From contig CAZMGV010000008.1 of NCBI GenBank assembly GCA_964565925.1, positions 2,664-66,663 of the forward strand: a DNA stretch of 64,000 bases, read 5' to 3'. The number at the start of each line of letters is the position of its first letter. Position 1 is the stretch's first letter. The notes beneath the pieces are model-generated. The model was not told where the DNA came from and ran no database searches. It worked only from the letters and a program-made list of their open reading frames with translations. The DNA comes from an uncultured bacterium. GTDB lineage: Bacteria; JAGRBM01; JAHCIT01. A program made the translations under genes and the position numbers. Below, in pieces: positions 1-20,099 of the stretch.

Positions 1-161
1 ATATCACAATCAGACAGAATGTCTTTATGATAACAATCAGGCTCGGCAAAAAAGGTGACGGGAATTATCCGTTTGTGGGAAATACCGGCCGGTAGAAAAC
101 CGGCCTTCTTCTATATACTGTTCCGTCGTTCCGGTTCTCAGGTCCAGGAGGGGTTCTTCAG

Positions 162-1064: not shown

Positions 1065-1070
1065 GCGCCC

Positions 1071-1700
1071 TCAGCGGAACGCTCTCAGCACGAACTCCAT
1101 GATGACGGGGATCGTCTCGGGGATCCGGTCGCGCCGTTTGTCGGCGTGATAGGCGAGCAAAAGCGAATCGATCCCGCCCATGACGAGCTTGATCATCACC
1201 GGGTCGGCCGTCCGTGACAGTTTTCCCTGCCGGTGGGCCGTGACGATTTCGGCCGCGATAAAATCGCCCAGCCTGTCCATCACCCGCTTGCGGACGTTGC
1301 GGGGGCCCTCGCCCGCCGCCATCACCTGGTAACCGATCATCGGGAACTCCGACGCGCGGCGGATATAGGTCGAGAGCAGCAACTCCAGCCGCTCCATCGG
1401 ATCGGTCTTTCCTTCAAGAATTTTTTCCAGTTCCTTCGACAGCGCGCGCCCGCCCAGTTCGACCACCGCCATGAGCACGTCTTCCCGGGAGGCAAAGTGC
1501 TCGTAAAAGGCGCGGCTGCTGGTGCCCGCCGTCTTCACGATGTCGGCGACGGCGGCGTTGGCGTAACCTATCCGGTCGAACGTCTCGGCGGCGGCCAGCA
1601 GAATCCGCCACTTGTTCTTCCGGCGGCGTGCGAGCTGGTTCGGTGTCAGCGGCTTTTCGGGCGCGGGCGGTTTCTTGCGGGCCGCTACGGTTCGTTTCAT
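1071..1700 (-). CDS. TetR/AcrR family transcriptional regulator
   Basis: N-terminal TetR HTH (ILLAAAETFDRIGYANAAVADIVKTAGTSSRAFYEHF); ~200 aa. Confidence 0.8.
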   Translation of the reverse strand: MKRTVAARKKPPAPEKPLTPNQLARRRKNKWRILLAAAETFDRIGYANAAVADIVKTAGTSSRAFYEHFASREDVLMAVVELGGRALSKELEKILEGKTDPMERLELLLSTYIRRASEFPMIGYQVMAAGEGPRNVRKRVMDRLGDFIAAEIVTAHRQGKLSRTADPVMIKLVMGGIDSLLLAYHADKRRDRIPETIPVIMEFVLRAFR

Positions 1701-1810
1701 GGGAATTGGGGCTCCGCCCCGATTATGGAACGGTTCCGTTTCAAAACAAAAGGTGCGGCCCCGCTCAAGCGGAGCCGCACCCGGAATAGCCGTTGCCGTC
1801 AGAAGCTGCC

Positions 1811-3373: not shown

Positions 3374-3678
3374 TGGCTTTTCCTCCAGCCTTTATATTTG
3401 AAACGTTGTTATTTCAAATATAACGTTTCCTGTCAACAGAATAATCATGTGCCGACGCTGTATACTATACAACTAATTGTTTTTACTCATATTTTAACTG
3501 ACATATTTTATGGTCAGATTAGGTTCTCAGAAAACTAAACAGACACGTTTTCAGTCCATTCTGGATAAACACCCGTTCTCCTTAGACGGCGGGATTCCGT
3601 GCATAATGCGGCTGGAACGGGTGGCGGGCGCTGGTTAAGCTCGCGCATCCCCCTACCCCTTCAGGAGACCCGCCTTCC
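3374..3678. promoter_or_regulatory. AT-rich divergent intergenic region (sulfatase <- -> NMO) with palindromic element
   Basis: ~300 bp of strongly AT-rich DNA in a high-GC genome; inverted repeat atatttgaaa(8 nt)tttcaaatat and repeated AACGTT palindromes near 3395-3440. Confidence 0.4.
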
Positions 3679-4626
3679 ATGACTATCCACACTCCGGTCT
3701 GCGACCTCCTCGGAATCGAATACCCGGTCATCCTGGGCGGCATGATGGGCGTCTCCGACGGCGTGCTGTCGGCGGCCGTCTCGGAAGCGGGGGGCCTTGG
3801 CACGATTTCAGCGGCCACGTTCGGCGCGGCCGGCACCAAGCGGGAGATCCTCAAGCTCAAGGAGCGCACGAGCAAGCCGTTCTCGGTTAACCTGCCGATC
3901 TTCCACCCCGAAGTGCCCAAGATTGTCGAGGCGCTGCTCGAAACGGACGTGAAGATTGTCACGACCGCCGCCGGGAGCCCGGACAAGTTTACCAAGGCAC
4001 TGAAAGAACGCGGCATTATCGTCATCCATGTCATCTCGACCGTGCGGACCGCGCTCAAAGCGGAGGCCGCCGGTGTCGATATCGTGGTCGCCGAAGGGGT
4101 CGAATCGGGCGGCAAGGTGAGCCCCGAAGAGGTCCCCACCATCTCGCTCGTCCCGCAGGTCTGCGACGCGGTGAAAATACCGGTGATCGCGGCAGGCGGT
4201 CTGGCCGACGGACGGGGGTTGCTCGCGGCACTGGCGCTGGGCGCGCAGGGTGTCCAGATGGGCACGCTGTTCATTGCCTCGACCGAAGCGCCGGTACACG
4301 CCAATTGGAAGAACGTGCTGGTGAACGCCGGCGACGCGGCCACTTCGGTCGCCTGCCGCAAGTCCTCACCCACCCGGCTGATCCGGAACGAGTTTTTCTC
4401 CGAGCTGGAGGCGCAGGACGCGCCCGGCAAGCGCGCGATGGATTTCATGATGATCCAGGGCCAGGGGATGGCTCGCATTCCGGCCGACGCCGAAGGACTG
4501 AAAGGCAACTACACAGCCGGCGCCGGAGCGGGCCTCATCCACAAGGTGCGTTCCTCCGCCGACATCATCCGGGACCTGATCGCCGTGGCCGAGAAGGACC
4601 TCACTCGCCTCAACACGTTCCGCTAG
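3679..4626 (+). CDS. nitronate monooxygenase (NMO / 2-nitropropane dioxygenase family, FabK-like)
   Basis: GGMMGVSDGVLSAAVSEAGGLGTI FMN-binding N-terminus typical of NMO family; 315 aa. Confidence 0.75.
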   Translation: MTIHTPVCDLLGIEYPVILGGMMGVSDGVLSAAVSEAGGLGTISAATFGAAGTKREILKLKERTSKPFSVNLPIFHPEVPKIVEALLETDVKIVTTAAGSPDKFTKALKERGIIVIHVISTVRTALKAEAAGVDIVVAEGVESGGKVSPEEVPTISLVPQVCDAVKIPVIAAGGLADGRGLLAALALGAQGVQMGTLFIASTEAPVHANWKNVLVNAGDAATSVACRKSSPTRLIRNEFFSELEAQDAPGKRAMDFMMIQGQGMARIPADAEGLKGNYTAGAGAGLIHKVRSSADIIRDLIAVAEKDLTRLNTFR

Positions 4627-4659
4627 AACCGCACACCCGATCTCCGGAAGGAATCCGCA

Positions 4660-5268
4660 ATGAAGCTCTATAACGACAACATGGCTCCCAATCCGCGCCG
4701 CGCGCGGATATTCATCGCCGAAAAGGGGATCACGATCCCCATGGTGAACGTGAATATCGCCGGTAAGGAGAACCGCACCGACGACTTCCTGGCGAAAAAC
4801 CCGCTGGGGCTGCTGCCGGTGCTGGAACTGGACGACGGCCGCATGCTGCCCGAATCGACAACCATCTGCCGCTATATCGAGGAAATGCATCCCGAGCCGA
4901 ACCTGATGGGCCGCGACGCCTGGGAGCGCGCGACCATCGACCGGTGGAACCGGCACATGGAGTTCGAACTGTTCCTCCCGATCGCGCAGACGTTCCGCAA
5001 CACGCACCCGTTCTGGAAGGGCCGCATCCCGCAGTCGCCCGACTACGGCGAGATGTGCCGCAGCTCCGCCGAGAAGCGCATCCAGTGGCTGAACGACGAG
5101 ATGGCCGGCCGCGAGTTCGTCGCCGGTGACCGGTTCACCATCGCCGACATTTCGGCGCTCGTCGCCATCGATTTCGGCCGTATCTCGAATATCCGCATCC
5201 AGCCCGGCCAGACGAACCTGGAGCGCTGGCACAAGGCGGTCTCGGCGCGCCCGAGCGCCAAGGCATAA
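4660..5268 (+). CDS. glutathione S-transferase
   Basis: GST N-terminal thioredoxin-like region (KLYNDNMAPNPRRARIFIAEKGI) and C-terminal GST domain; 202 aa. Confidence 0.75.
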   Translation: MKLYNDNMAPNPRRARIFIAEKGITIPMVNVNIAGKENRTDDFLAKNPLGLLPVLELDDGRMLPESTTICRYIEEMHPEPNLMGRDAWERATIDRWNRHMEFELFLPIAQTFRNTHPFWKGRIPQSPDYGEMCRSSAEKRIQWLNDEMAGREFVAGDRFTIADISALVAIDFGRISNIRIQPGQTNLERWHKAVSARPSAKA

Positions 5269-5285
5269 TCCGCAGGGAGATTCCC

Positions 5286-6011
5286 ATGAGCCTCGCCGAT
5301 CAGCTTGCCGACAGAGCCAGCGGCCCGATCGACCGCAAGGAGTTCGCCCGGCTTTATGCGATCACCGACCCTGCCCCCGTCGACGTACTCAACCTGATCC
5401 GGTTCAAAAACCGCAACTCCTACAACGTCTACGGGATGATGATGGTCCCGACGCTGAAAGCCATCGGCGGCTCGATCCGCTGGACCGGCCGGCACGTACA
5501 GGCGCTTTCCGGCGAACCCCAGTCGGAAGAGCTGATTGTCGTGCGCTACCCGATGATCCGGCGCTTCCTCCAGATGGCGGTGAACCCGCTGTACCTGGCC
5601 GTCGCCAACCCGTTCCGCACCCGCGGCGTGAGCCACTTCGAGGCCTCCTTCACCACACCGGACGAACCGGCCGCGTTCGACAGGGAACCGTGGATCGCCG
5701 TCATTCACTTCAACGGAGACGACAGCGCGTATAATCGTGTGCGGGACATCGCCGTCAGCGCCGGCGGCAGATACGTCTATTCATCGAAAGAGTTCAGTCC
5801 GGTATCGATCCTGAAAAAGTTTACGCCCACCGACCCGAATCCGCTCCGGTTCAAGCGCGTCGCCTTCTTCGCGTTCCCGTCGCAGGAAGACGCCGCCCGC
5901 GCCCTCACCCCGGCTGTGACCGGGCGTATCGGCGCCGCCACCGAAGGCGCTTCCGTCCAGCTCTACCGGCGGGCCAGCCTGAAAGAGTTCATCCCGCGCT
6001 TTAGCCGCTGA
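5286..6011 (+). CDS. hypothetical protein (possible dimeric alpha/beta-barrel, DUF1330-like tandem)
   Basis: Coding-like composition and RBS (gggaga); no recognisable catalytic motif. Confidence 0.45.
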   Translation: MSLADQLADRASGPIDRKEFARLYAITDPAPVDVLNLIRFKNRNSYNVYGMMMVPTLKAIGGSIRWTGRHVQALSGEPQSEELIVVRYPMIRRFLQMAVNPLYLAVANPFRTRGVSHFEASFTTPDEPAAFDREPWIAVIHFNGDDSAYNRVRDIAVSAGGRYVYSSKEFSPVSILKKFTPTDPNPLRFKRVAFFAFPSQEDAARALTPAVTGRIGAATEGASVQLYRRASLKEFIPRFSR

Positions 6012-8145
6012 TCACGGAGTTGATCTGGTCGCGCAGCGTTTCCATCGATAGCGGCTTCTGCAGGAACCCGCTGGCGCCCCTGGAGAGAACCGTTTCGAGC
6101 GCGTCCGGATCGGCGTAGCCGCTCATCAGGATCACCGGAAGCTGCGGACGCTGGGATTTGAGCCGCGAGAGCACCTGCCAGCCGTCCATCTCCGGCATGT
6201 TGAGGTCCAGCAGGACGCATGACACGTCCTTGCCGTCCCGGGACAGGAGTCCCAGCACGTCTCCGCCGCCCGTGAGCCCTTCCACGCTGAACCCGAGCGT
6301 CTCCGTCATCGCCACGATCGTGTCCCGGATATCCTTCTCGTCGTCCACGACGAGTATCCGGCCCGCCGCCGCCCGGGGCTGCACCGCCGGCGCCGGCTTG
6401 GGTTCCGGCTTCACGCTGGCCACCGGGAAGTAGAGCCGCATCAGCGTGCCCCTGCCCGGCTGGCTCTCCACCTGGATCGCGCCCCGGTGCGACTGGACGA
6501 TTCCGAGCAGCGCCGAGAGACCCAGCCCCCGGCCCCGCGGCTTGGTGCTGAAAAACGGATCGAAAATGTGGGCGAGCACGCTCTCGTCCATCCCGCAGCC
6601 GTTGTCGCGGATGTCGAGACGCACATAACGGCCGGCGGCGAGCGCCTTGCCGTTGACCGACACGACCGGCTCCCGGTCGGTCACCTCGGCCGCAGCGGAA
6701 CTGATCGTGATGGTGCCGGGATTGTCGCCGATGGCTTCGACGGCGTTCTGGATCAGGTTGACAAGAATCTGGTTGATCTGCCCGGGGTCGCCCTGAACAG
6801 GCGTCACGTCCGGCGAAAGCTCCAGGCGCAGATCGACCGCCGCGGGGATCGACACCCGCATCACCTTGGAAAGCTCCTCGGCGGCGGCGTTCAGCGACAC
6901 CGGCGACTGGCTGCGGCGCCCCTTGCCCGTCGAGTGCAGCAGCTGCTTTACCAGATCCGCCGCCCGGCGGGCGGCGGCCTTGATGCTGACGATATTCTCC
7001 AGTGTCTCCGAGCCGGGTTCGAGCGAGCGTTCGGCCAGCGTCGCGTGCCCCAGTATCGGCGTCAGCAGGTTGTTGAAGTCGTGCGCGATGCCGCCGGCGA
7101 GCATGCCCAGGCTCTCCATCCGGCGCGCATGGGCGAGCTGGCGCTCCAGCTCCGAGCGGCGCTTCTCTTCCTTGCGCTGCTCGGTGACGTCCGTGGCCGA
7201 GCTGGTCAGCGAGACGACCCTCCCTTCCCTGATGACGGGCCAGATCCGCGTTTCAAAACTCCGGGCCGTACCGTCATGGTGGTGATACTCCCCGCAGTAG
7301 CTGCCGGGCTTACCAGTGGCGATCACGTGATCCATGCAGCCGCGCTGGGCGGCGTGGAACTCGGGCGCCGTCAGGTCGAACACGTTCACCCCCAGCACCT
7401 GATCCATCGTGAGTTCCGGGATTGTCCGGTTGCAGAACAGGATCTTGCCGTCCAGATCGAGCGACAGGACGTAGTCCGGCGAGCTTTCGGCCACCGACCG
7501 CCACTTGGATTCCGACTCCCGAAGTTCGATCTCCGCCATTTTGCGCGCCGTCACGTCCCGGGTCATGCCCAGCGCTCCTTCGAAATTCCCGTCCGCATCG
7601 AACAGCGGATCGGTCTGCATCTCGACCCAGACCTCCGTGCCATCGAGACGGCGGAACTTGAAGCTGTGTTCCTCGCTGATCCCCTGGCGGCGCCGGTCCA
7701 TGTTATTGCCGGCCCGCGCCTTCGCCTCGTCGTCCATGAAATCCCACATGGTGCTGACCAGCATCTGCCCCATGGTGACGCCGAGAATGTCGGCCATCCG
7801 GCTGTTGGCGTAGGTCGTACGCCCCTCCCGGTCGATCATCCAGACCCCTTCGCCGGTTGTGCGGATGATCCGGGCGTACTGGGCCTCGACCGAGCGAAGC
7901 GTCGTTTCCACGCTTTTCTTTTCGTCGATCAGCCGGCCGGCAACGGCGGCGAAAACCAGCAGAATCGCAAACAGGCCGAGCCGCATCCACAGCTCGGACC
8001 CGGCCGGATACAGCAGCATTTCCTGGAAACTGCCCTGCCCGAACAAAAGCGAATCCGCAGCCGCGTCGAGGACCCAGAACAGGGCCCACAAACCGACCGC
8101 AAGGCTCATCAGCCTCGGATAAATTAACCGGCGTGCGCGTTGCAC
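6001..8145 (-). CDS. hybrid sensor histidine kinase/response regulator with PAS domains
   Basis: 2 N-terminal TM helices, PAS repeats, HisKA (HDFNNLLTPI), HATPase_c (GCGMDE...GLGLS), C-terminal receiver domain (ILVVDDEKDIRD). Confidence 0.85.
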   Translation of the reverse strand: MQRARRLIYPRLMSLAVGLWALFWVLDAAADSLLFGQGSFQEMLLYPAGSELWMRLGLFAILLVFAAVAGRLIDEKKSVETTLRSVEAQYARIIRTTGEGVWMIDREGRTTYANSRMADILGVTMGQMLVSTMWDFMDDEAKARAGNNMDRRRQGISEEHSFKFRRLDGTEVWVEMQTDPLFDADGNFEGALGMTRDVTARKMAEIELRESESKWRSVAESSPDYVLSLDLDGKILFCNRTIPELTMDQVLGVNVFDLTAPEFHAAQRGCMDHVIATGKPGSYCGEYHHHDGTARSFETRIWPVIREGRVVSLTSSATDVTEQRKEEKRRSELERQLAHARRMESLGMLAGGIAHDFNNLLTPILGHATLAERSLEPGSETLENIVSIKAAARRAADLVKQLLHSTGKGRRSQSPVSLNAAAEELSKVMRVSIPAAVDLRLELSPDVTPVQGDPGQINQILVNLIQNAVEAIGDNPGTITISSAAAEVTDREPVVSVNGKALAAGRYVRLDIRDNGCGMDESVLAHIFDPFFSTKPRGRGLGLSALLGIVQSHRGAIQVESQPGRGTLMRLYFPVASVKPEPKPAPAVQPRAAAGRILVVDDEKDIRDTIVAMTETLGFSVEGLTGGGDVLGLLSRDGKDVSCVLLDLNMPEMDGWQVLSRLKSQRPQLPVILMSGYADPDALETVLSRGASGFLQKPLSMETLRDQINSVISG

Positions 8146-8290
8146 GATTTCCCCCGTCCCCGGGACCGCTCTGACGCGGACTCCTTCGGACCGAACCCCT
8201 TGAAACGATAAAGATATACTAAGACCAACGGGGCGCCGCCCGCAACGGGAAAATAACGGGGAACCGCACGGAATTTTTTAAAATCTGGAA

Positions 8291-9019
8291 TCAGCGGACC
8301 CGGCAGCGCTCGGCACCGATCACGTGCTTCAGATCCATAAGTGCTGTTTCAACCTCGACGTTGCGGACCACGTAGTCGAACTGGTCCACCGCCTGCATTT
8401 CGGTTTCGGCCGTCTTGAGACGCCGCTGGATCTGATCGCGGCTTTCGGTGCTGCGCAGACGCAGCCGGTGCTTGAGCTCGCTCAGCGACGGCGGCGAAAT
8501 GAACACCAGAATGGCTTCCTTCAGCGCCGCCCGGATCGACATGGCCCCCTGCAGATCCACCTCGATCAGGATGTCCTGCCCGCTCGAAAGCTGGTCCTGT
8601 ACCCACTGCTTGCCCGTGCCGTAGTAGTTCATCCCGTGAACGTAGGCGTATTCCAGGAATTCGTTACGCTTTACCATTTTCTGGAACTGGTCGCGGCTCA
8701 CGAAGTGGTAGTCGCGGCCGTTGCGCTCGCCCGGACGGCGGTCGCGGGTCGTATAGCTCACGCTCCAGCGCATCCGGGGGTCTTCGGCCAGCAGCCGCCG
8801 GATCAGCGTCGATTTGCCGGAACCCGACGGCCCAGCCACGACGACGACAATTCCCCGCCGGCCTTTGCCGGGGATTTTATGGCCGGGAACATTATGGCCC
8901 GGGATCTTTTGAGCAGGCGCCCTTTTCTGACCGGACGAATTCCCGCCGGCCGCCTTGCCTGCAGGTACCTTATGAGCGGGTTTCTTCCCTTTGCTATTCG
9001 AGGTTCTGGACTTGTTCAC
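8291..9019 (-). CDS. gmk: guanylate kinase (low-complexity N-terminal extension in the ORF; true start may be downstream non-ATG)
   Basis: GPSGSGKSTLIRRL P-loop and YTTR motif; overlaps yicC stop by 26 nt at the annotated ORF start. Confidence 0.85.
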   Translation of the reverse strand: MNKSRTSNSKGKKPAHKVPAGKAAGGNSSGQKRAPAQKIPGHNVPGHKIPGKGRRGIVVVVAGPSGSGKSTLIRRLLAEDPRMRWSVSYTTRDRRPGERNGRDYHFVSRDQFQKMVKRNEFLEYAYVHGMNYYGTGKQWVQDQLSSGQDILIEVDLQGAMSIRAALKEAILVFISPPSLSELKHRLRLRSTESRDQIQRRLKTAETEMQAVDQFDYVVRNVEVETALMDLKHVIGAERCRVR

Positions 9020-9875
9020 GGATTCGCTCGATCTCGCTCTTCATATCCACGATCCGGTGGGCCACCGACGTGTTCTGCGCCTTCGACCCGATCGTATTCA
9101 GTTCGCGGAAAATCTCCTGGATGAGAAAGTCCAGCTTGCGCCCGCAGGGCTCGCGCCCCGTGAGCAGTTCGCCGAATTTCTGCAGGTGGCTCTCGAACCG
9201 GACGATCTCTTCGGTCACGTCGGCGCGGTCCACCCAGTAGACCACCTCCTGCGCGAGCCGCTGCTCGTCCAGTTTCAGTTCCACTTCCAGTTCTTTCAGG
9301 CGCTTCTGGATCCGTTCTCGCAGGTTCTGGACGGTCTCGGGGCGCGCCTCTCGCAGCGCGGGGATATGCGCCTTCAGTCCGTCCATCCGCTGGTTCAGGT
9401 CCAGCGCCAGATGCTCGCCCTCGATGGTCCGGACCTTGTCGAGGTCTTCCAGCGCCGCCTCAACGATCTTCACGACCGCATCGGTCACCCGTTCCGACAC
9501 CTCGAAGCGTGACTGCTTCACGACATCCCGCTGCGCGATCACGAGCCTGAACAGGTCGGCGGGGTCGGACTTCAGATGCAGGGTGCTTGCCAGGTTCTCG
9601 AACTCCCGGGCGTAGTGCTCGGCCAGCCCCAGGTCGATCGTGACCGGCTTGCTGTCACCCGCGACCACCGTTTCGTCGAGCGTGAGGTCCACCCGGCCCC
9701 GGTTCACCCGCGAGCGCACGACCTCGGTCAGCTTGCCTTCCAGGATGAGCAGCGACGGCGGCAGCCGGAGCTTGGGGTCCAGGTTGCGGCTGTTCACCGT
9801 CCGGATCTCGCACGAAATCTGGCGGCCTTCCACCACTCCCTGCGCGCGTCCGAACCCGGTCATGCTTTTCGGCAT
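8994..9875 (-). CDS. yicC: YicC family stress-induced protein (DUF1732)
   Basis: MTGFGRAQG...SCEIRTVNSR N-terminus characteristic of YicC; conserved yicC-gmk neighbourhood. Confidence 0.8.
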   Translation of the reverse strand: MPKSMTGFGRAQGVVEGRQISCEIRTVNSRNLDPKLRLPPSLLILEGKLTEVVRSRVNRGRVDLTLDETVVAGDSKPVTIDLGLAEHYAREFENLASTLHLKSDPADLFRLVIAQRDVVKQSRFEVSERVTDAVVKIVEAALEDLDKVRTIEGEHLALDLNQRMDGLKAHIPALREARPETVQNLRERIQKRLKELEVELKLDEQRLAQEVVYWVDRADVTEEIVRFESHLQKFGELLTGREPCGRKLDFLIQEIFRELNTIGSKAQNTSVAHRIVDMKSEIERIREQVQNLE

Positions 9876-9919
9876 AGGGGTTTCATGTAACCGGTTTTCC
9901 GGCGGCGGGGAAGTGAAAC

Positions 9920-11443
9920 CTACAGCATGTAACTGTCCAGCGGCTCGTCGATCGCCGAGAGAAAATCGACCGTCAGGCTGAGACGCTGGTCCTTGAGCTT
10001 GCGGATAGTCTCCCGCACTTCCGGATGCGACATTACGAACCGGTCGAACTGCTCCGGAGAAAGATAAAGAAGCACGCTCTCGGTCCGGCTCCGTACGGTG
10101 GCCGTGACCGGTTCTTTCAGTATCAGCGATATTTCGCCGAACACGTCGCCCTCATGGAGCTTGCCATACGCATGCTCCGTACCGCCGGAATCCGCCCGGA
10201 TCACGTCGCATTCGCCCCTGAACAGGACGAAAAATCCCTGTCCCTGCTGTCCCTGCTGAAGGATATCGATTCCGGGACTGACCGTCCGGCTCTTGAATGC
10301 CTCCACGAGCTGCTGCTTTTCGTTTCTGGAAAAAGGCTGGAAGACCGGGCTGCACTGAAGGAGATTGGCAAGCAGCCGCGCCCGGTAAAACCGTTCGACG
10401 ACCTCGATCACTCCCGGGTACGCCGCCCCGATCTCTTCCAGATCGGCGCGTCGCAGTTCAAGAACCACCGTATCTTCGAGCGCGACCGCCGAGACGAGCC
10501 GGGGGGATTCCGCGATCAGGGCCATTTCGCCGAAAAACGCGCCCCGGTCCAGCACGGCAAGGGGTTTGTGCTCCCCCCGGTCCTTTTCACGGACCACGGC
10601 AACCCGGCCCTGCACGATGATATAGAGAGCGCTGCCGCGATCGCCTTCCCTGACAATGGTGTCATCCTTCCTGAACGAATAGAGTCTGAGTTTTCCGATG
10701 GCGGCCACAAAGGCCTGGCTGTTCATGGAGGAAAAAAGCGGGATCGGTGGCAGGCTGTCGAGGTCGAACGGGAACGTATCGAGATCGGCCAGATCCGTCG
10801 ACGAGCCGTGTTTCCTGATGGCGGCATCCGTCTCGGCCGAAACGGGCACCGGCCCCGGGGGCGGTGACGCTTCGGCCTCGTTGGCCAGCCGGAAAAACTC
10901 CGCATCTTCTTCGGTGATCTCGATATCGATTTCTTCCGGCGGACGATTCGCGCCGGGACGGCCGGCGGATTTCATTCCACCCGGGAGCCCTGATCCCATA
11001 CCGCCGCCGCCATAACCGGCGGCGGGTTTCGCGGCCGTCACAGCGGGTTTCCTCCCGGCGGTCGCGCTCGCCGGGGCGCTTACCCTGCCTGAATCGAACG
11101 GGCTCGCCTCCTTTCGGTTGGCGTAAAGCTTCGCCAGCAGGTTCTGCATCTCGACGTTATTCTTGTCGAGATTCAGGATCAGTTTGCAGACAGCGATGGC
11201 TTTGAGAACATGACCCTGCCGCGCATATTCAAACGTAACGAAGCGATAAACATTGACCGCGTCTTCAGGTCTTCCGATTTTTGTGAGGATCTCGCCGATT
11301 CGCTGGCGCAGCGAAAGGTCCTGCGGGGACAGTTCGACCGCCTTGCAGAATTCGCGAAGGGCTTCTTCCGGTTTCCCCTTGCCCAGATACTCCGCCGCCT
11401 TGTCCTTGTGCGCGCGCAGCTGAGCCGGATTGGGTGGAGCCAT
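9920..11443 (-). CDS. TPR-repeat protein with two cyclic-nucleotide-binding domains
   Basis: N-terminal TPR helices, low-complexity G/P linker, two cNMP-binding domains (FGEMALI..., FGEISLI...). Confidence 0.7.
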   Translation of the reverse strand: MAPPNPAQLRAHKDKAAEYLGKGKPEEALREFCKAVELSPQDLSLRQRIGEILTKIGRPEDAVNVYRFVTFEYARQGHVLKAIAVCKLILNLDKNNVEMQNLLAKLYANRKEASPFDSGRVSAPASATAGRKPAVTAAKPAAGYGGGGMGSGLPGGMKSAGRPGANRPPEEIDIEITEEDAEFFRLANEAEASPPPGPVPVSAETDAAIRKHGSSTDLADLDTFPFDLDSLPPIPLFSSMNSQAFVAAIGKLRLYSFRKDDTIVREGDRGSALYIIVQGRVAVVREKDRGEHKPLAVLDRGAFFGEMALIAESPRLVSAVALEDTVVLELRRADLEEIGAAYPGVIEVVERFYRARLLANLLQCSPVFQPFSRNEKQQLVEAFKSRTVSPGIDILQQGQQGQGFFVLFRGECDVIRADSGGTEHAYGKLHEGDVFGEISLILKEPVTATVRSRTESVLLYLSPEQFDRFVMSHPEVRETIRKLKDQRLSLTVDFLSAIDEPLDSYML

Positions 11444-11573
11444 CTAGTGGGTACCTTCCGATGAAGAATTTATCGATGCTGAAGTCTACATCGGGTCCGG
11501 TGACAGCCGCCACGACGAAATAGCAAAAAGTAATAATAACAGTCGGCCGTCGTGCCGGAATGGAACAGCACAG

Positions 11574-12047
11574 TCAGGTAGCTCCCTTTTCCCTGAGCCA
11601 CGCGCAGGTCGCCTTGTCGGTGGCGACGATGTGCAGGAGCAGCCACTGCTTGAGGTAGTTGAGCAGCTGCCGGGCGACCAGATCGCTGTCGGATCCCTGC
11701 GTCTTCCAGCCGGCGATCTTGGCGGCGAACTCCCCGTGCTGCCCCTTGTGGCCTGTAGCGCCCGGGTAGCCGTGCCGCTTCATCAGGTTTTCCTCGGTCG
11801 AGAAATGGTGCTCGATGTAGCTGGCGAGCGCCGGGAGCGTTGTTTCAAGCGCTTTGGCGGTTTTGCCTGCGGCGACGCTGGCCGCGAGTCCGTTGATGAG
11901 CCGGACCAGATGCTGGTGCTGGTCGTCGACCAGCCGGATACCGGTCAGATAGTCGTCTTTCCAGGCGATGTATTCCTCGGCCACGAGACGACCCCCGTAA
12001 AATGGATTGCACAGGGTGATATTCACATATTTCGTGCCGGGCCTCAA
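11574..12047 (-). CDS. hemerythrin-like (bacteriohemerythrin) protein
   Basis: Hemerythrin His/Glu ligand pattern (DDQHQHL, IEHHFSTEE, HIVATD); real start probably internal (near VAEEYIAW). Confidence 0.65.
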   Translation of the reverse strand: MRPGTKYVNITLCNPFYGGRLVAEEYIAWKDDYLTGIRLVDDQHQHLVRLINGLAASVAAGKTAKALETTLPALASYIEHHFSTEENLMKRHGYPGATGHKGQHGEFAAKIAGWKTQGSDSDLVARQLLNYLKQWLLLHIVATDKATCAWLREKGAT

Positions 12048-12101
12048 TCACCGGCAGGAGATATGAGGCCGCCATATCAGGTCAGCTTCGTGACCGGTTT
12101 C

Positions 12102-13082
12102 CTATTTCACCTTACAGGTGGCGGGGTCTTTCGCTTTCGCGCGCCAGAGGCCGGCGGTTTTCTCCTGCACCTCTGTGAGCCCGGCGATCATGCCGATCCG
12201 CTCGCCGACAGGACCGGCTTCGTCACACTGGCGGGCAGAAACCAGCGCCTCCAGCAACAGCAGCTCGATCTCGGCATTCTGCTGATGCGTGGCGGCCGAC
12301 GCCAGCTGGAGCAGGCTTGCGGCGCGGTACGGGTCGCGGAGCTTGTCGTCCCTGCTATGGAGCAGCAGCCGGCCGAGCGGCCCCAGCATCACCGGATCCT
12401 TGGGGAACTGCTTGCGGCCCAGTTCGTAAGTGCCGAGCGCGTCCGCGTCCCTGCCCGTTTTCATCTGGAGTTCGGCCATCCGGATGAACGCCTCGGGCGG
12501 CGTGCGCGGCAGCTCGATGCAGCGCTTGAGCAGCAGCTCCGACTTCTTGTCGTCCTTGGTCTCGAGCGCCAGCGTGCAGTAGTCGACCTCCGCCTGGCTG
12601 AGCGTCTCTTTCATGAACTCCGACCGTCTGAACGAATCCCTGACCGACGCGAGCACGCCCGCCGAACCGGCCTTGAACCCGGTGAAGGCGAACAGCAGCG
12701 CGCCGCCGTCGATCGCCCGGCCCGTGAACACCGCCGTCTGGTCATTGCCGTAACCGACCACGGCGTCGGTGAACCCGTCGCCCGACTGCTGGTCGGTAAT
12801 GCGCCCGCCCTTGAGCGTCGACAGGTTGATCTTGAGAAACGCCTGGAACTGGTCGTTGAGCGTGCCGGTCTGGGTCTGCTTGAGGACCAGCAGGCGGCGG
12901 CCGTCGGGCCAGTTGACCAGTTCCGAGCCCGAGCGCTGGACGACCTTCGGGTCGAACCCCTGCGGCACCTGCACCTTGAAGCCCAGCGAGTTCGACGTAT
13001 AGAGCGTCATCTGCGCGCGCGCGGGCGCGGCGGTAAAGATCACCGCCGCCGCTATCGCCATCACTGGGAAAAGCCGTTTCAT
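12102..13082 (-). CDS. secreted hypothetical protein, C-terminal TPR-like helices
   Basis: Signal peptide (MKRLFPVMAIAAAVIFTAAPARA); start overlaps upstream GGDEF gene stop (ATGA). Confidence 0.5.
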   Translation of the reverse strand: MKRLFPVMAIAAAVIFTAAPARAQMTLYTSNSLGFKVQVPQGFDPKVVQRSGSELVNWPDGRRLLVLKQTQTGTLNDQFQAFLKINLSTLKGGRITDQQSGDGFTDAVVGYGNDQTAVFTGRAIDGGALLFAFTGFKAGSAGVLASVRDSFRRSEFMKETLSQAEVDYCTLALETKDDKKSELLLKRCIELPRTPPEAFIRMAELQMKTGRDADALGTYELGRKQFPKDPVMLGPLGRLLLHSRDDKLRDPYRAASLLQLASAATHQQNAEIELLLLEALVSARQCDEAGPVGERIGMIAGLTEVQEKTAGLWRAKAKDPATCKVK

Positions 13083-15307
13083 CTCGCCGCCGGCACCGGC
13101 GCCTTTCCCGCCGCATCGGCCGGGACTTCCGGTACCACCACTCCGTTACTTTCCAGATGCAGCTGCCCCGCCGCCTCATCCGTCTCGCCGAACTCCACCG
13201 TCCGGTTCCGCCCCGACCGCTTGGCCTGGTAGAGCGCCCGGTCGGCGCGGTCGATCAGCTCCGCCTTCTTCTTGCCGTCCCGGGGATAAACGGCAAGCCC
13301 CAGCGACACGGTCGCCTGGAACGTGCCGCCGTCGGGAGCGCGGAAAACTTCCTTCTGGAACTCCTTGCGGATGCGCTCGGCCACCACCTTGGCGCCCTTG
13401 GAGGGCGTGTCGGGGAGCACCATGACGAACTCTTCGCCGCCGTAGCGGGCCGCGAGATCGATCTGCCGCGCCTGGCGCTTGAGGATCGCCGCCAGCCGCC
13501 GGATCGCCTCGTCGCCGCAGGGATGGCCGTAGCTGTCGTTCACCTTCTTGAAGTGGTCGATGTCGAGCAGCAGCAGCGAGAGGGGCTGCGCCGAGCGCTG
13601 CGCGCGTTCCACCTCGTTGGCGAGCCGCTCCTGGAAGTGGCGGTGGTTGCACAGGCCCGTGAGGCCGTCGGTGGTGGCGAGCTGCTCCATGCGCTTGTAG
13701 AGCTGCGCGTTCTCGAAAGCGTAGGCCGCCTGCTGGCCGAGCATCTCCACCAGATGGACTTCGTAGGGGCGCAGCCGCTCGCGCGACTTGCAGCCGACAC
13801 ACAGCACGCCGCCGACACCGTGCGGGGTGGGGAACGGCACGCCCACCATCACCTCGCAGGCGGGGAGTTTTTCCTTTCTGAACGCGAGGGGCCGGGCGGG
13901 GTCATTGTTCGACTTGCGGGAATACGCGAGCGTGTGGCCCGTGGAGGCGATCCAGGCGAGACGCGACTGCTCTTCCACGGTCTGCCCGACCATTTTCGCG
14001 GCATCCGCCGCCGGCACCTGCCCTCCCCCTATGTGAATGATCTCGAGTTCGTCCCCCGGCGGGCGGCGAAGCGCCAGCACCACCAGATCGGCGGGCAGGA
14101 TTTCCTTCACGGCGGTTTCGAGTTTCTGCGCCAGCTCGCCTTCCTGGATCGTGCTGCCGAGCGCCGTGCTGAACCGGTAGAGACCCTCGAACTCGCGCTT
14201 CTGTTCCATCACCCGGCGAAGCGCCTGCGCCGAGGCCAGCACCTCCGTCACCTGCGCCGCGCCCAGTTCGAGTATTTTCTGCTGGTCCTCGCCGAACTGG
14301 TCCGCCTCGGGGGCGTCCACCGCCAGCACGCCGCAGGCGTGCCGGTCGTCCAGTACCGGCACCGCCAGGAACGACGCGCTCGCCACCTTGCCGAGGTAGT
14401 ACGGCAACTGGAGGCGCGCTAACTCCTGCGCGCCCACGCGCAGCGGTTTGGCATACTGCAGCACCCAGCCGGCGGGGCCCTCGCCCGGCTTCAGCGTCCG
14501 GGCCGGGTCGATCTCCGCCACCGAGATCGCCTCCCGCAGGCGCAGGTTCTCGCCCCTGGAGTCCACCAGATACAGCACCACCGTGCGGCCTTTCACGAGC
14601 CGCACCACGCGGTCGCAGATGGAGTAGAGACTTTCGTCCAGGTCCCGCGCCACGTCGGAGATGTCGCCTGCAAGGCGCGCCTCGATACGTTCCGCCTCGG
14701 GGGCGTCGTCAAGGAGCGAGCCCTTGGAGAGCGCTTCCCTGCCCTGCTTGAACGATTCGACAATGTTTTCGAGATGCTCGCGGCGCTTTCGTTCGAACCG
14801 GAGCAGAGCGCCTAACCCCGTCGTTGCAACGAGAATGAACAGCAGGCGGCCGACGAACTGGTCGAGTTCCGCGGGGAACGCCCCCGCGCCGTAGCGCTGC
14901 GCGGCGTCCAGGCCCGCCACCGCGAGACCCGAACCGGTCGCCGCGAGCGGCGAGATCGCCATCGAGAGGCCCGCCAGCAGCAATAGCATCCCCGGCGCCA
15001 GCGGCGAGCGCGTGACGCCGCCCGTCCACCAGACCACCAGGAAATACAGCGACGCGATCAGCGCCCCCTGCAGGCCGTCCAATCCTTTGGCCGGATGCCT
15101 GGAGCCGTAGAGCCGCCGCGCGGCAAGCAGTCCCAGCCCCGACAGGGCGAACAGAACCGGCACCGCCGGGCGCGAGGTGTGGATCCAGCCCTTCGACCAG
15201 ACCAGCACGCTCACCGCGTAGAGCACGGCTCCGGCGGCCGGAATGACGGGGATTTTGGGCGTCTTCAAACGGGGCTCAGGGGCCGCTGACGGACGGAAAG
15301 CCCTCAA
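13079..15307 (-). CDS. membrane-anchored GAF-GAF-GGDEF diguanylate cyclase
   Basis: ~6 N-terminal TM helices, GAF domains, GGDEF active site RYGGEEFVMVL. Confidence 0.8.
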   Translation of the reverse strand: MRAFRPSAAPEPRLKTPKIPVIPAAGAVLYAVSVLVWSKGWIHTSRPAVPVLFALSGLGLLAARRLYGSRHPAKGLDGLQGALIASLYFLVVWWTGGVTRSPLAPGMLLLLAGLSMAISPLAATGSGLAVAGLDAAQRYGAGAFPAELDQFVGRLLFILVATTGLGALLRFERKRREHLENIVESFKQGREALSKGSLLDDAPEAERIEARLAGDISDVARDLDESLYSICDRVVRLVKGRTVVLYLVDSRGENLRLREAISVAEIDPARTLKPGEGPAGWVLQYAKPLRVGAQELARLQLPYYLGKVASASFLAVPVLDDRHACGVLAVDAPEADQFGEDQQKILELGAAQVTEVLASAQALRRVMEQKREFEGLYRFSTALGSTIQEGELAQKLETAVKEILPADLVVLALRRPPGDELEIIHIGGGQVPAADAAKMVGQTVEEQSRLAWIASTGHTLAYSRKSNNDPARPLAFRKEKLPACEVMVGVPFPTPHGVGGVLCVGCKSRERLRPYEVHLVEMLGQQAAYAFENAQLYKRMEQLATTDGLTGLCNHRHFQERLANEVERAQRSAQPLSLLLLDIDHFKKVNDSYGHPCGDEAIRRLAAILKRQARQIDLAARYGGEEFVMVLPDTPSKGAKVVAERIRKEFQKEVFRAPDGGTFQATVSLGLAVYPRDGKKKAELIDRADRALYQAKRSGRNRTVEFGETDEAAGQLHLESNGVVVPEVPADAAGKAPVPAAR

Positions 15308-16573: not shown

Positions 16574-16610
16574 GCCTGCGCGCCTAGCAGTCTTCAGCAG
16601 TCTTTAACAG

Positions 16611-16650
16611 AGCGGCCGCTCCCCGGAAGGTGGGCGGCCGTTTTTTTTGT
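16611..16650 (+). terminator. rho-independent terminator
   Basis: GC stem cggccgc...gcggccg followed by TTTTTTTTG immediately after ORF 15656-16573. Confidence 0.7.
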
Positions 16651-16757
16651 TTGGGCCCGCCGGCCTGTGCCCAGTCTTGTTCCACGAAGCTTTAGCGAAG
16701 GGGAAAGCCGAAGGACGGAGGGGTAAGTCTCAACGGAGGAGGGTCAGGTAAATACTG

Positions 16758-17219
16758 TCATGGTATAGTTTTCGTGACGAAATATATCGCACAAACGATG
16801 CCTAAAAGCATCATACCGAATGCGCCTACTGCCGCACAGTAGCCGTGCCTAGCCCGCGACTCTATGAATTTCTTAACTTCGATCGCACGGGACGCATCAA
16901 TTTTTGCTAAGCGCGGGAATATGACGTAGCCACATAAAAATAAAGAAACCATCCATGAGAAACAGGGGATCCATACCCAATGTCCTGGAACTACTTGGCC
17001 GGGATCCTTACAATCACGATATAGCTTCAATAACCCGAGATAGACCGGCTGCATCCCTGCACTAATCGTAGCAATATGCTTCGCGGCATCCGTCAGGCTA
17101 CCGATGCTCCCCGAAATCAAATCCTCTCCCATTTTTTTATACGCCGGACTCATCTTTTCAAAACGCTCAAGCGCTTCTTGAACACTATCGGGCGCGCGTT
17201 CGCCATTGATCACAGCCAT
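16758..17219 (-). CDS. small two-TM membrane protein (island gene D)
   Basis: Two C-terminal hydrophobic helices (WVWIPCFSWMVSLFLCGYVIF; YCAAVGAFGMMLLGIVCAIYFV); 20-nt gap to upstream gene. Confidence 0.5.
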   Translation of the reverse strand: MAVINGERAPDSVQEALERFEKMSPAYKKMGEDLISGSIGSLTDAAKHIATISAGMQPVYLGLLKLYRDCKDPGQVVPGHWVWIPCFSWMVSLFLCGYVIFPRLAKIDASRAIEVKKFIESRARHGYCAAVGAFGMMLLGIVCAIYFVTKTIP

Positions 17220-17238
17220 CTCAGCGACCCCAAATCAC

Positions 17239-17451
17239 CTAAAATAGAAAGGTTACCTTGTTAGCTTTTCCACACTCTGAGCATATATCATACCGATTCT
17301 CAGCTGTCATAGGCGCGCGCACTTCCATTTTCATAATGGAATCCTTCTCCGCGGATAACATTGCTTCGACATCCTGGATCGAATACGTTTGGCTGTATAT
17401 GGAAGTATTTTCTTTCTTACAATTGAAACATGTATACTTTACCATTTTCAC
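17239..17451 (-). CDS. small zinc-ribbon protein (island gene C)
   Basis: CFNC...CSEC paired CxxC motifs in 70 aa; 31-nt gap to upstream ATPase gene. Confidence 0.5.
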   Translation of the reverse strand: MKMVKYTCFNCKKENTSIYSQTYSIQDVEAMLSAEKDSIMKMEVRAPMTAENRYDICSECGKANKVTFLF

Positions 17452-17481
17452 GAGACACCTCCCGGATATTCACAACTCATT

Positions 17482-19092
17482 TCATCCTGACAAATACTCA
17501 TAGACAGCTTCTCTAACCGAATTTTTTATCGCTCGGGATCTATGAGGCCCAACGTACTTTACTTTCTGAAGCTTCTCATCAGATGCTCTAAGCACTTGCT
17601 CTAGAGTAAGCAGATTAAGCTCCTTAAGTTTTACTTTTTGCCATTCCGTGACATCCAATAGCTCGATAGACTTAGAATATGCACTCTTAAGAATATCTGT
17701 AACATTAATGTCTGGATACAATTCTTTTTCAGGAGGCAAAGACTTGAATGATTCATGATTCATTCCGTATTCTGTCATAAGTTTAATTGACAGATTTTTT
17801 GCAAATTCAATCAATCTAATTCCTTTGATATCCATTACTTTCGACATCACGATTCCCAAATGCACCGCATAACGGGAGCCAATCTCCGCTCGTGTTGCCT
17901 TAATCCCAGTCGCATGCTCGCGAATGATCCCCGTATAAGATAAAAGTCGGAATGCGTGCCTGACGGCTTCAGGTGCATCACGGTGCAGCCAGATAAAGCA
18001 CGACGTTTTCTTATCGGATTTTAAGTACGCTTCATTTTTTTGATATAACTCGTTCAATACGTTGCCTTCGACAAAATTGCGGCCCCAATCTATTAAAGGT
18101 TTATGCCCAGTATAACTCTCAACTAACATGGAATGTTCGGACCATATGTCATCTCGGTAATACTCTCGGATAACCCGCCTCACATTATCTCCGTTTAGCT
18201 TCTTCGCTCTAAGAATCGTTTTAAAAAGTAGTCGTGGATTTCCATCAGAGGCATAAGCGAGTTCCGAAAAGTGCTCCCTATTTTCTTCAATTTGTTTAAT
18301 AAGCTGTAGGTCCCCCTGCTTTACTATCATCTCCTCCATATTCTTAATGTAATCTTCACTTAATACATCTCTATTAACATTTAAGAATGTAGCATCATGA
18401 GTAGGCTCAAATGTATCTCCGTAATTAGTGACTCCAGGGTATACGGCCGCATTACAAGTCATAAATGGACTTCGTAAATCTCTAAACAACGTAAAAAATT
18501 GTCTTTGTTGCTCTGGTTTTAAGATATGTGCGGCTTCATCAAAAAATACACAAAAGCGAGATATTCCAAAGCCGATACATATATCTTCAACAGCTTCTTT
18601 AAATTGATCTACACTCGGTAATTTCGCTATATCGACTTTTACATCTGGGTGTTCCCAAGATTGCTCATACGCTTGGACAATCTTTGCGATATCGACTTCG
18701 TCTTTGGAATATCTGATTGATGGCGATGGAGTGAGCGAAAACGCCGAACTATCCGTAAAACCATATCTTCTCATACTTCTAATTATTGATTGCCATAATT
18801 TCCCAAGCATCCAGTGCTGGAATTGCATCTGATCATTGGTCTGTATAAGTGTGCCCTTGACAAAACTAATATATATCGGGAGTACTTTGTTATTGGCGAA
18901 ATTGGCTGAAAGTTCTTGAATTGCAACTTTCAATAAAAATGATTTTCCAACGCCTCTACTGCCCACTACAATTGTCGGAGCTTTGGATTTCAGGGAGTCG
19001 ATGATCCGACGGTCTTGTTCAGATTCGACGAAATACTGAATTATATCTTCGTCTTTTATATCTTCCGTACGGAATATTAGTGGATCACTCAT
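17482..19092 (-). CDS. P-loop NTPase (AAA+/STAND-like) with C-terminal helix-hairpin-helix (RNAP alpha-CTD-like) domain (island gene B)
   Basis: Walker A VVGSRGVGKS, Walker B FCVFFDEAAH; C-terminus LTLEQVLRASDEKLQKVKYVGPHRSRAIKNSVREAV resembles alpha-CTD HhH; start at ATG 19092 with AAGGGA RBS (longer ORF to 19143 possible). Confidence 0.7.
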   Translation of the reverse strand: MSDPLIFRTEDIKDEDIIQYFVESEQDRRIIDSLKSKAPTIVVGSRGVGKSFLLKVAIQELSANFANNKVLPIYISFVKGTLIQTNDQMQFQHWMLGKLWQSIIRSMRRYGFTDSSAFSLTPSPSIRYSKDEVDIAKIVQAYEQSWEHPDVKVDIAKLPSVDQFKEAVEDICIGFGISRFCVFFDEAAHILKPEQQRQFFTLFRDLRSPFMTCNAAVYPGVTNYGDTFEPTHDATFLNVNRDVLSEDYIKNMEEMIVKQGDLQLIKQIEENREHFSELAYASDGNPRLLFKTILRAKKLNGDNVRRVIREYYRDDIWSEHSMLVESYTGHKPLIDWGRNFVEGNVLNELYQKNEAYLKSDKKTSCFIWLHRDAPEAVRHAFRLLSYTGIIREHATGIKATRAEIGSRYAVHLGIVMSKVMDIKGIRLIEFAKNLSIKLMTEYGMNHESFKSLPPEKELYPDINVTDILKSAYSKSIELLDVTEWQKVKLKELNLLTLEQVLRASDEKLQKVKYVGPHRSRAIKNSVREAVYEYLSG

Positions 19093-19096
19093 GGAA

Positions 19097-19837
19097 TTAT
19101 CCCTTACTATAATACTGTCTGAATATCGGAATACTCGAAACATTATCTTGGAATACCGGCTCTAGCAGTGCTTTATCTTCAGCATTTAAACCGGCCAGAT
19201 ACCTTGAAAATAACCCGATCTGGACGATAAAGAATACGCTATCTGCTAAGGTTAACCACTCTCGAAATACCGGTTCATTATATTCGATATCGGCCTTCAA
19301 AAAATCGGTTCGGGAGTAATTCCCGTGCACGTATTCTGAACAGGATCGATATACTTTTGCACAATGTTCTGAATAGATCGATGAATCTGTCTCTAATCCG
19401 GCGCAATATAACTTACAGTAAGAGGCGGAGAATACACCGTTGTCCTTGTTGGTCACTTCTGACCACTGCAAATCATATTTACCGGCTTTCCAGGCTCTAA
19501 AGTGATAATCATGCATCGAAAAATATATGACACCAATTGAGGCTTCCAAAAATTGGCGCAATTCAAATATTGCTTGTCGATATCCTCCAGTAGTCCCTTC
19601 ATATAGGGAGCGACTGAACCCCCAACAGCAATAGTTGAATAGTTCGACCTCCGGAGTTTCCTGAATAATATTTCGCCAAATCTCTAAATCGGCGCGCTTT
19701 GAATGGATTGCTGCCAGACGACCGGCGTGGCTAGATTGCAGCGCTAACGCCGAATTGCTTTGAACCTTCTGGATTAAGCGTGTGTATTCGCTTGTAAGCG
19801 CCGTCACCGCGATAGCTGGCTTTGAAATATCAGACAT
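19097..19837 (-). CDS. hypothetical protein (island gene A), Cys-rich, possible Rx6H (HEPN-like) motif
   Basis: 246 aa from ATG 19837 (TTG at 19849 also possible); coding-like periodicity; first gene of the island operon; RSCSEYVH motif. Confidence 0.5.
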   Translation of the reverse strand: MSDISKPAIAVTALTSEYTRLIQKVQSNSALALQSSHAGRLAAIHSKRADLEIWRNIIQETPEVELFNYCCWGFSRSLYEGTTGGYRQAIFELRQFLEASIGVIYFSMHDYHFRAWKAGKYDLQWSEVTNKDNGVFSASYCKLYCAGLETDSSIYSEHCAKVYRSCSEYVHGNYSRTDFLKADIEYNEPVFREWLTLADSVFFIVQIGLFSRYLAGLNAEDKALLEPVFQDNVSSIPIFRQYYSKG

Positions 19838-20099
19838 GTACGGTTCCAATCGTCTTTGATATCACAAAATATATACCAACTAGTAAAAGTGTTCAAAAAA
19901 ATAGTAGTAGGCGCCATCCTTATTCACAGGCTCACCACGAACGGTGCCGCTCTGAAAATGCACCTTCCGGTGCGGCTTTCCCCCGAAATTCCCGCCAGTT
20001 ACCAACTGTGACACTCCGTGACACACACGTCTGATAGGGTGCTTTGCAGGTAAGGGGGCATATGGGCCCCGCCATCACAAGTCTGCCGCTTCCATCCCT

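Follow-up and report, generated by a model that had tools for sequence, protein, structure and literature searches.

The window analysed here comprises 64,000 nucleotides from an uncultured bacterium (GenBank assembly GCA_964565925.1, contig CAZMGV010000008.1, positions 2,664 to 66,663 of the forward strand) and carries on its minus strand two closely spaced genes, hereafter the cassette. The downstream gene occupies positions 17482-19092, stop codon included, and encodes an ATPase of 536 amino acids, its open reading frame extending from the ATG at 19092-19090 to the stop codon at 17484-17482. The upstream gene, at positions 19097-19837, encodes a partner protein of 246 amino acids (250 if an alternative TTG start at 19849 is used) without a Pfam match. 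The TAA codon of the partner frame, at 19099-19097, is located 4 nt before the ATG of the ATPase gene, and a Shine-Dalgarno-like AAGGGA on the minus strand (19105-19100) lies inside the 3' end of the partner frame, at 7 nt from the same ATG; a preliminary description of this DNA, made from the letters alone, had pointed to both elements, and both were found as described. A longer in-frame ORF beginning at 19143 is disfavoured, since all 48 of the 48 aligned homologues start at the position of the Met at 19092, with the pattern M-x-D/E-F-F-Y-RTED. Homologues of the ATPase form at least 1778 clusters at 90% identity, are nearly all 533-541 amino acids long and share about 50% identity over the full length, and the gene is clearly real and not a chance ORF.

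Both genes are located, together with two orphan downstream ORFs, in a low-GC island which the composition profile places at positions 16600-19950, a feature without strand. Over these approximately 3.3 kb the GC content is 0.36-0.50, against a background of 0.63-0.72. The two downstream ORFs, of 70 and 153 amino acids, were found in no other locus examined. Searches of the island in the window for a tRNA, an Rfam family or direct repeats at its flanks gave nothing, promoters and terminators left no clear signal there, and its repeats are just short ones at chance level, none of them iteron-like.

Domain organization of the ATPase

The Walker A motif GSRGVGKS (residues 44-51; 18940-18963, minus strand) is contained in VVGSRGVGKS, residues 41-50 as numbered for the longer string, and the Walker B motif CVFFDE (residues 181-186; 18535-18552, minus strand) in FCVFFDEAAH (residues 180-189). 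In an alignment of 49 sequences G47, G49, K50 and S51 of the former, and D185 and E186 of the latter (nt 18535-18540), are invariant. Likewise, the same alignment displays no variation at any of the four residues of a GNPR motif in the lid (G284, N285, P286 and R287; 18232-18243, minus strand), which is found at the start of the lid helix 286-295 of the AF2 model, a position that we take, by analogy, to be that of the STAND 'GxP' motif and of the sensor-2 arginine of ORC/Cdc6.

Against Pfam PF24389, 'ORC-CDC6-like', the ATPase scores 50 bits (E 2.7e-13) with a gathering cut-off of 27, and is therefore a member of this family; the best match stretch shown covers residues 7-56, and a precomputed PF24389 match is present in all 120 homologues listed. 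In NCBI and UniRef the homologues are named 'ORC-CDC6 family AAA ATPase' or 'helix-hairpin-helix domain-containing protein', and one of them bears the UniRef label 'RNA polymerase alpha subunit C-terminal domain-containing protein'. The ATPase-HhH fusion as such is accordingly not new, given that the databases already name the alpha-CTD/HhH tail and that the ATPase family is curated as PF24389. A literature search for PF24389 found no paper citing the family.

The AF2 model of the ATPase, calculated with 49 sequences (mean pLDDT 83), predicts an AAA+ alpha/beta core, a helical lid, a winged helix, a variable linker (441-480) and a C-terminal five-helix domain, in this order. Strands 2 and 3 of the core are separated by about 100 residues of inserted helices, within which falls the segment of the protein that varies most (residues 101-160). 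The winged-helix domain (approximately residues 375-410; 17863-17970, minus strand) is modelled as a helix, 375-385, and a beta hairpin formed by 390-398 and 404-410. When the ATPase sequence was searched against the PDB, the matches were no more than noise. In structural comparisons the top matches were STAND-like proteins of the NBD-HD-WHD type and not initiators, the core resembled the NODs of NLR-type proteins, and the matches included the defence ATPases SeAvs3 (12.7), BrxC (12.6), EfAvs5 (11.7) and RdrA (11.4); no well-characterised non-defence family was matched by the core. Considering the Walker A of the form GxxGxGK[ST], the Walker B of the form hhhhDE and the modelled core, lid and winged helix, the protein is assigned to the ORC/Cdc6-STAND part of AAA+, with a predicted layout of NBD, helical domain and winged helix. 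The AAA+/STAND-like class which the preliminary description had proposed from the two Walker strings is thus supported by the invariance of their key residues, by the PF24389 match and by the modelled fold. That description had mentioned neither the PF24389 membership nor the winged helix between ATPase and tail, nor the HEPN-like partner encoded upstream.

The C-terminal tail had been read as a module of approximately 40 residues following the HhH pattern of the alpha-CTD, the C-terminal domain of the RNA polymerase alpha subunit, with the minor-groove and UP-element binding of that domain. The first part of this reading is upheld by profile and secondary structure, with the extent corrected to about 75 residues: an alpha-CTD-like double helix-hairpin-helix is predicted at approximately residues 464-536 (17485-17703, minus strand) from profiles, AF2 helices and alignment. 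When residues 455-536 of 17 family members were made into a profile and compared with the PDB, three alpha-CTD chains ranked at the top (3gfk, 3ihq and 1z3e, E 0.012-0.016) and the HhH domain of DisA next. Pfam RNA_pol_A_CTD was matched by 13 of these 17 members, with a best E of 4.9e-6, and HHH_5 by eight; the tail of the window protein scored 14.2 bits (E 0.037) against RNA_pol_A_CTD (PF03118), under the cut-off of 23.8 bits. When compared by hhalign with the alpha-CTD of E. coli, the tail aligned over 48 columns in the same register, with an E of 0.0029 for the single comparison. The AF2 helices of the tail (464-472, 483-491, 497-502, 505-508 and 516-535) fit the double-HhH layout of the alpha-CTD, and none of the results contradicts an HhH fold at this end of the protein.

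In E. coli, the DNA contacts of the '265 determinant' of the alpha-CTD are made by R265, N268, C269, G296, K298 and S299, of which R265 is the residue entering the DNA minor groove. In both alignments the equivalent of R265 in the tail is an invariant tryptophan, W484; the position of N268 is variable, that of K298 is H517 in the window protein and K in the family consensus, and the only residue of the determinant to be kept is G296, as the invariant G515. The other invariant residues of the tail are R518, R520 and E532-Y-L-S535, and the terminal G536 is nearly so. Based on its profile and predicted helix layout the tail is alpha-CTD-like and not a bona fide member of PF03118, and a true alpha-CTD identity was rejected in view of the sub-threshold score and of the replacement of R265 by Trp. 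The UP-element part of the earlier reading is not supported: W484 occupies the place of R265 and, judging by residue conservation, the tail is predicted not to be a reader of UP elements. Its sequence is nearly identical from Enterobacteria to Methanosarcina.

A conserved upstream partner

In a word-indexed search the window partner alone retrieved itself only, and 141 homologues were obtained once the search was seeded with an alignment of partners from other loci. With an exhaustive profile search, the number of clusters at 50% identity was 327 at E < 1e-30 and rose to 1067 when the threshold was relaxed to E <= 1e-3. Among the 150 partner matches listed, all are single-domain proteins, mostly of 230-260 amino acids, without any fusion to the ATPase.

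The model of the partner is all-alpha, with a pLDDT of 94.8, and places at the C-terminal end of a helix, 148-170, the nearly invariant motif Y163-R164-x-C-S-E-Y-V-H171-G. In the window protein this reads R164-S-C-S-E-Y-V-H171, that is R-x6-H, which fits the HEPN signature R-x4-6-H. Among 60 partner homologues H171 is invariant and R164 is present in at least 90%; other conserved residues are Y86-R87, L93-R94, E98 and R212. DUF5677 (PF18928) was matched by 19 of 60 partner members in one consistent register, at sub-threshold scores of 16-21 bits against 27.1, and the Csx1/Csm6 HEPN model was weakly matched by six of the 60 (E 0.0014). Roquin, AbiA, the HEPN toxin 5yep and LsoA appear among the lower-ranked entries of the partner's match list. 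None of the Pfam HEPN families reached threshold with the partner, a Foldseek search of the model against the PDB gave nothing significant (best E 0.37), and comparison of the sequence profile with the PDB revealed no solved relative. Based on motif and model the partner is probably HEPN-like and probably an RNase, and the name 'HEPN-like, probable RNase' was adopted because the sequence support is weak and the Foldseek and PDB profile searches were negative.

In order to describe the linkage of the two genes, a set of loci comprising a first ten contexts and then 5 viral and 80 metagenome loci was scanned with HMMs of both proteins. Each of the first ten contexts carries a Pfam-less gene of 233-258 amino acids directly upstream of the ATPase. 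Of 93 loci in which the DNA upstream of the ATPase extends over at least 720 nt, 90 carry the partner immediately upstream and on the same strand, and the three loci without it belong to three distant PF24389 relatives, so that within the close family the count is 90 of 90. Measured from partner stop to ATPase start in 86 non-redundant loci, the intergenic distance is 2 nt at the median and ranges from -8 to +35, with overlapping genes in 31 loci; such a spacing agrees with translational coupling. Over nine loci the pairwise identities of the ATPases correlate with those of the partners (r = 0.87), the partner diverging faster than the ATPase, with a mean identity of 34% against 52%. The ATPase is, accordingly, one half of an obligate two-gene cassette, the genes of which co-evolve.

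No third conserved gene was found in the 86 loci, and the one gene that recurs nearby, in 6-7 of them, encodes a C5 DNA methyltransferase. Distant PF24389 members (22-26% identity) carry a zinc ribbon in place of the HhH tail, and their genes are accompanied by that of a methyltransferase and by a downstream gene instead of an upstream HEPN-like partner; hhalign comparison of the partner profile with the downstream genes of these relatives revealed no relationship.

Distribution and mobility

The cassette is found in Proteobacteria, Firmicutes, Cyanobacteria and Methanosarcina, the genera including Klebsiella, Enterobacter, Yersinia, Pectobacterium, Pseudomonas, Aeromonas and Clostridium, and the ATPase has 398 metagenome matches. 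In Pseudomonas lundensis it is located between an integrase with an EcoRII-type RM system and P2-like tail genes, and on a Planktothrix plasmid it has Ssp-like genes for phosphorothioation on one side and genes for helicase, HATPase and PLD on the other. A Clostridium butyricum megaplasmid carries it after a recombinase, an Enterobacter plasmid of the IncFII type beside a TacA/TacT-like pair, and other genomes next to smpB or integrases; a Methanosarcina contig and five IMG/VR viral contigs also harbor it. Most loci are found in chromosomal islands and not on plasmids, with four full-length matches among 72,556 plasmids, and no homologue was detected in 50,697 GenBank phage records. For the Enterobacter copy, no near-identical DNA was found in complete E. 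coli genomes or in PLSDB. Many of the contexts display no obvious defence island, and with an RM-type neighbour in just 6-7 of the 86 loci the island signal is anecdotal. The cassette is self-contained and horizontally mobile.

The possibility that the ATPase is a cellular ORC/Cdc6 replication initiator was considered and rejected on the basis of its low-GC island, its sporadic occurrence across phyla at about 50% identity, the integrases, prophages and plasmids found alongside, and its pairing with an effector-like gene.

Discussion

As far as its two genes can be read from sequence, the catalytic-type motifs of both are intact and conserved. We hypothesize, with a probability of about one half, that the cassette constitutes an NTPase-switched HEPN RNase system directed against phages or plasmids, of the abortive-infection type. 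The product of the first gene (19837-19097) would be the effector, a presumed metal-independent RNase acting through R164 and H171, and that of the second (19092-17482) a nucleotide-dependent switch and sensor. The mechanism that we infer is putative in every functional step, from the binding of nucleic acid through oligomerisation and RNase activity to the direction in which regulation runs and the resulting defence phenotype: the ATPase would bind nucleic acid, probably DNA of the invading element, or an invader protein, by means of its winged helix, HhH tail and variable insert, and in the ATP state would oligomerise; the oligomer would then either release the partner or assemble it into an active HEPN dimer, and this dimer would cut host and/or phage RNA, whereby the infection would be stopped. 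The nucleic-acid-guided ATPase activity suggested in the preliminary description is plausible given a winged helix together with an HhH domain.

Several known systems display a comparable logic. PrrC and RloC place a HEPN-type RNase under the control of a P-loop NTPase, are associated with RM loci and follow an abortive-infection logic, as proposed for the cassette. Nevertheless, each of them unites the RNase and an ATPase of the ABC type in one polypeptide, whereas the cassette encodes an AAA+ ATPase and a separate putative nuclease, and no sequence similarity of the cassette to PrrC or RloC was detected. Likewise, Septu PtuAB and PARIS AriAB combine a sensor or scaffold ATPase with a small nuclease effector in the same operon logic as the cassette, but their ATPases are of the ABC/SMC type and their nucleases HNH or Toprim, and no significant similarity to the cassette proteins was found. 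Some BrxC/DUF499 proteins of BREX and BREX-related systems bear an N-terminal HEPN domain; in contrast to the ATPase described here they reach about 1000 amino acids or more, and their genes are embedded in multi-gene operons of the BREX type alongside those for PglZ and a methyltransferase; no such genes accompany the cassette.

With respect to STAND/NLR-like NTPases (Avs, bNACHT, NB-ARC, CED-4), the ATPase is devoid of a C-terminal repeat sensor such as TPR, WD40 or LRR; in fact, neither Pfam nor the AF2 model revealed any repeat domain, and no effector domain was found N-terminal to Walker A. Compared with the Avs/NLR-type STAND proteins, its tail is an HhH of about 75 amino acids, the presumed effector is encoded by a gene of its own, and the protein is much smaller, at 536 amino acids. 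HEPN-STAND fusions and ORC/Cdc6 ATPases are themselves established themes of conflict systems (PMC3710099, PMC10853773, PMC12839542). Literature searches on PF24389, DUF5677/PF18928, ORC-CDC6 with anti-phage, and HEPN with Cdc6, STAND or HhH found no paper describing the cassette.

Against PADLOC-DB v2.0.0 (2023) and NCBIfam 20.0 (2026), the latter holding at least one DefensePredictor model, DS41_1, neither protein reached threshold, the ATPase giving weak matches over its N-terminal P-loop to PDC-S01 (E 5e-4), mad8 (6.6e-4), PtuA (0.011) and Sll1717 (27.9 against 75 bits). DS-41 ('AAA2') is a validated single-gene anti-phage AAA protein found with DefensePredictor (PMC13092281), and the ATPase resembles it over the N-terminal approximately 95 residues, including the stretch before Walker A (NCBIfam NF053860, E 6.8e-6). 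DS-41 differs in being a single gene of about 500 amino acids without a HEPN-like partner, and, since the score is 25 bits against a cut-off of 370 bits, the ATPase is not a member of DS-41 and at most a remote relative.

Other functions can be envisaged for a mobile pair of this kind. It is somewhat unlikely that the cassette is a toxin-antitoxin or addiction module, in which the ATPase would neutralise or regulate a HEPN-like toxin, or the reverse, and plasmids and islands would be stabilised without any sensing of phages. A multi-domain, highly conserved NTPase of 536 amino acids with intact catalytic motifs is atypical as an antitoxin, and both the predominance of chromosomal islands and the very few plasmid copies noted above speak against such a role. 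Toxin-antitoxin and abortive-infection roles are not mutually exclusive. A second alternative is a part in the maintenance of a mobile element, where an ATPase similar to ORC/Cdc6, TnsC or MuB would act in replication initiation, partition or target-site choice and the partner would be accessory. We consider this quite improbable: the cassette is not accompanied by a transposase, a replicase or iteron-like repeats, the 86 loci share no third gene and integrases occur at some of them only, the best structural matches are, as mentioned, STAND-like and not initiators, and the conserved R...H motif and probable HEPN-like fold of the partner point to an effector.

The resemblance of the tail to alpha-CTDs could, in addition, reflect an integrated decoy, the tail serving as bait for phage factors that hijack the alpha-CTD, upon which an NLR-like oligomer of the ATPase would turn on the HEPN RNase. 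Phage proteins that target the alpha-CTD do exist, Alt and ModA of T4, which ADP-ribosylate R265, and Ogr of P2, which contacts the domain; moreover, the closest sequence relatives of the tail are genuine alpha-CTDs and the core of the ATPase is similar to NLR-type NODs. Nevertheless, the residue equivalent to R265 is an invariant Trp, and the near identity of the tail in Enterobacteria and Methanosarcina also weighs against a bait. To our knowledge archaeal RNA polymerase has no alpha-CTD, and mimicry of each host's own protein does not fit a tail that is conserved into such archaea; we consider the decoy highly improbable. If true, it would represent a bacterial and archaeal counterpart of the integrated decoys of plant NLRs, guarding the transcription machinery.

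The broader kind of system to which the proposed NTPase-switched HEPN RNase would belong, an NTPase sensor with a nuclease effector, is already known. What is new is the obligate pairing of the ATPase with an unannotated HEPN-like family, which makes this an uncharacterised and widespread two-gene cassette, missed by the defence models searched (PADLOC v2 and NCBIfam 2026). If its role is indeed defence, the cassette would be a compact module of two genes and approximately 2.3 kb in which an ORC/Cdc6-STAND ATPase controls a separately encoded HEPN-type RNase. Through this pairing Pfam PF24389 gains a lead to its function, and the partners form a new, hitherto unannotated HEPN-like family. The ATPase is unusually conserved, its bacterial and archaeal copies being about 50% identical, which makes this protein tractable for work on the structure and mechanism of what may be a minimal NLR-like switch reading nucleic acid.

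Conserved and variable segments of the ATPase

The last five residues of the 536-aa ATPase, E-Y-L-S-G (residues 532-536, window 17485-17499), are strictly conserved: across the 49 aligned homologues E-Y-L-S does not vary at all and the terminal glycine hardly does, yet model confidence over this segment is low (pLDDT about 48-62). The strict conservation of this free C-terminal tail suggests a candidate docking peptide, either for the HEPN-like partner or for an adjacent protomer. Two other segments of the otherwise highly conserved ATPase display a variability far above that of the remaining protein, namely residues 101-160 (window 18613-18792), a helical insertion that separates strands 2 and 3 in the AAA+ core, and residues 441-480 (window 17653-17772), the linker preceding the HhH tail; both are candidate specificity or sensor surfaces.

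Genomic context of the cassette

Immediately downstream of the ATPase gene, on the same (minus) strand and inside the same low-GC island, lie two ORFs, the first encoding a 70-aa zinc-ribbon protein with a CxxC...CxxC arrangement (window 17239-17451) and the second a hydrophobic 153-aa product, probably a membrane protein (window 16758-17219), for which a family search returned no match. All other cassette-bearing loci lack both, the sole exception being L106, a sister-sample contig of identical sequence. Possible readings are that they are orphan accessory genes or that they form a small module unrelated to the cassette.

Among the 86 non-redundant loci, the sole recurring neighbour family is a Dcm-type C5 DNA methyltransferase, found near the cassette in six to seven of them (L002 of P. 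lundensis, L021, L023, L068, L079 and L081) and accompanied by Vsr in some. Co-location with RM systems is one possible reason for this recurrence, and common island hot spots are another. On the 36-kb plasmid p2 of Planktothrix agardhii (L010, positions 1-13602), the cassette is flanked on one side by Ssp-like phosphorothioate-modification genes, encoding a DUF4007 protein, a 1170-aa protein and a PAPS-reductase family protein, and on the other by a series of DEAD-box helicase, GHKL-type ATPase, DUF2779 and phospholipase-D genes, surroundings which look like a dense defence island.

Distant PF24389 relatives

PF24389 ATPases with 22-26% identity are encoded in loci on plasmids of Rhizobium (L012, 5965-8714), Cupriavidus (L020, 3718-7523) and Limimaricola (L019, 4947-7502). 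In these proteins a zinc ribbon replaces the C-terminal HhH tail, and each gene is followed by an uncharacterised gene of 274-349 aa; two of the three loci also carry an upstream DNA methyltransferase. One of the downstream genes gave a weak match to HEPN_RiboL-PSP (E 0.0012), and hhalign found no similarity between the window partner and the three downstream genes. The layout of these loci differs from that of the window cassette, and these observations suggest that PF24389-based modules form a broader set, between which partners are swapped.
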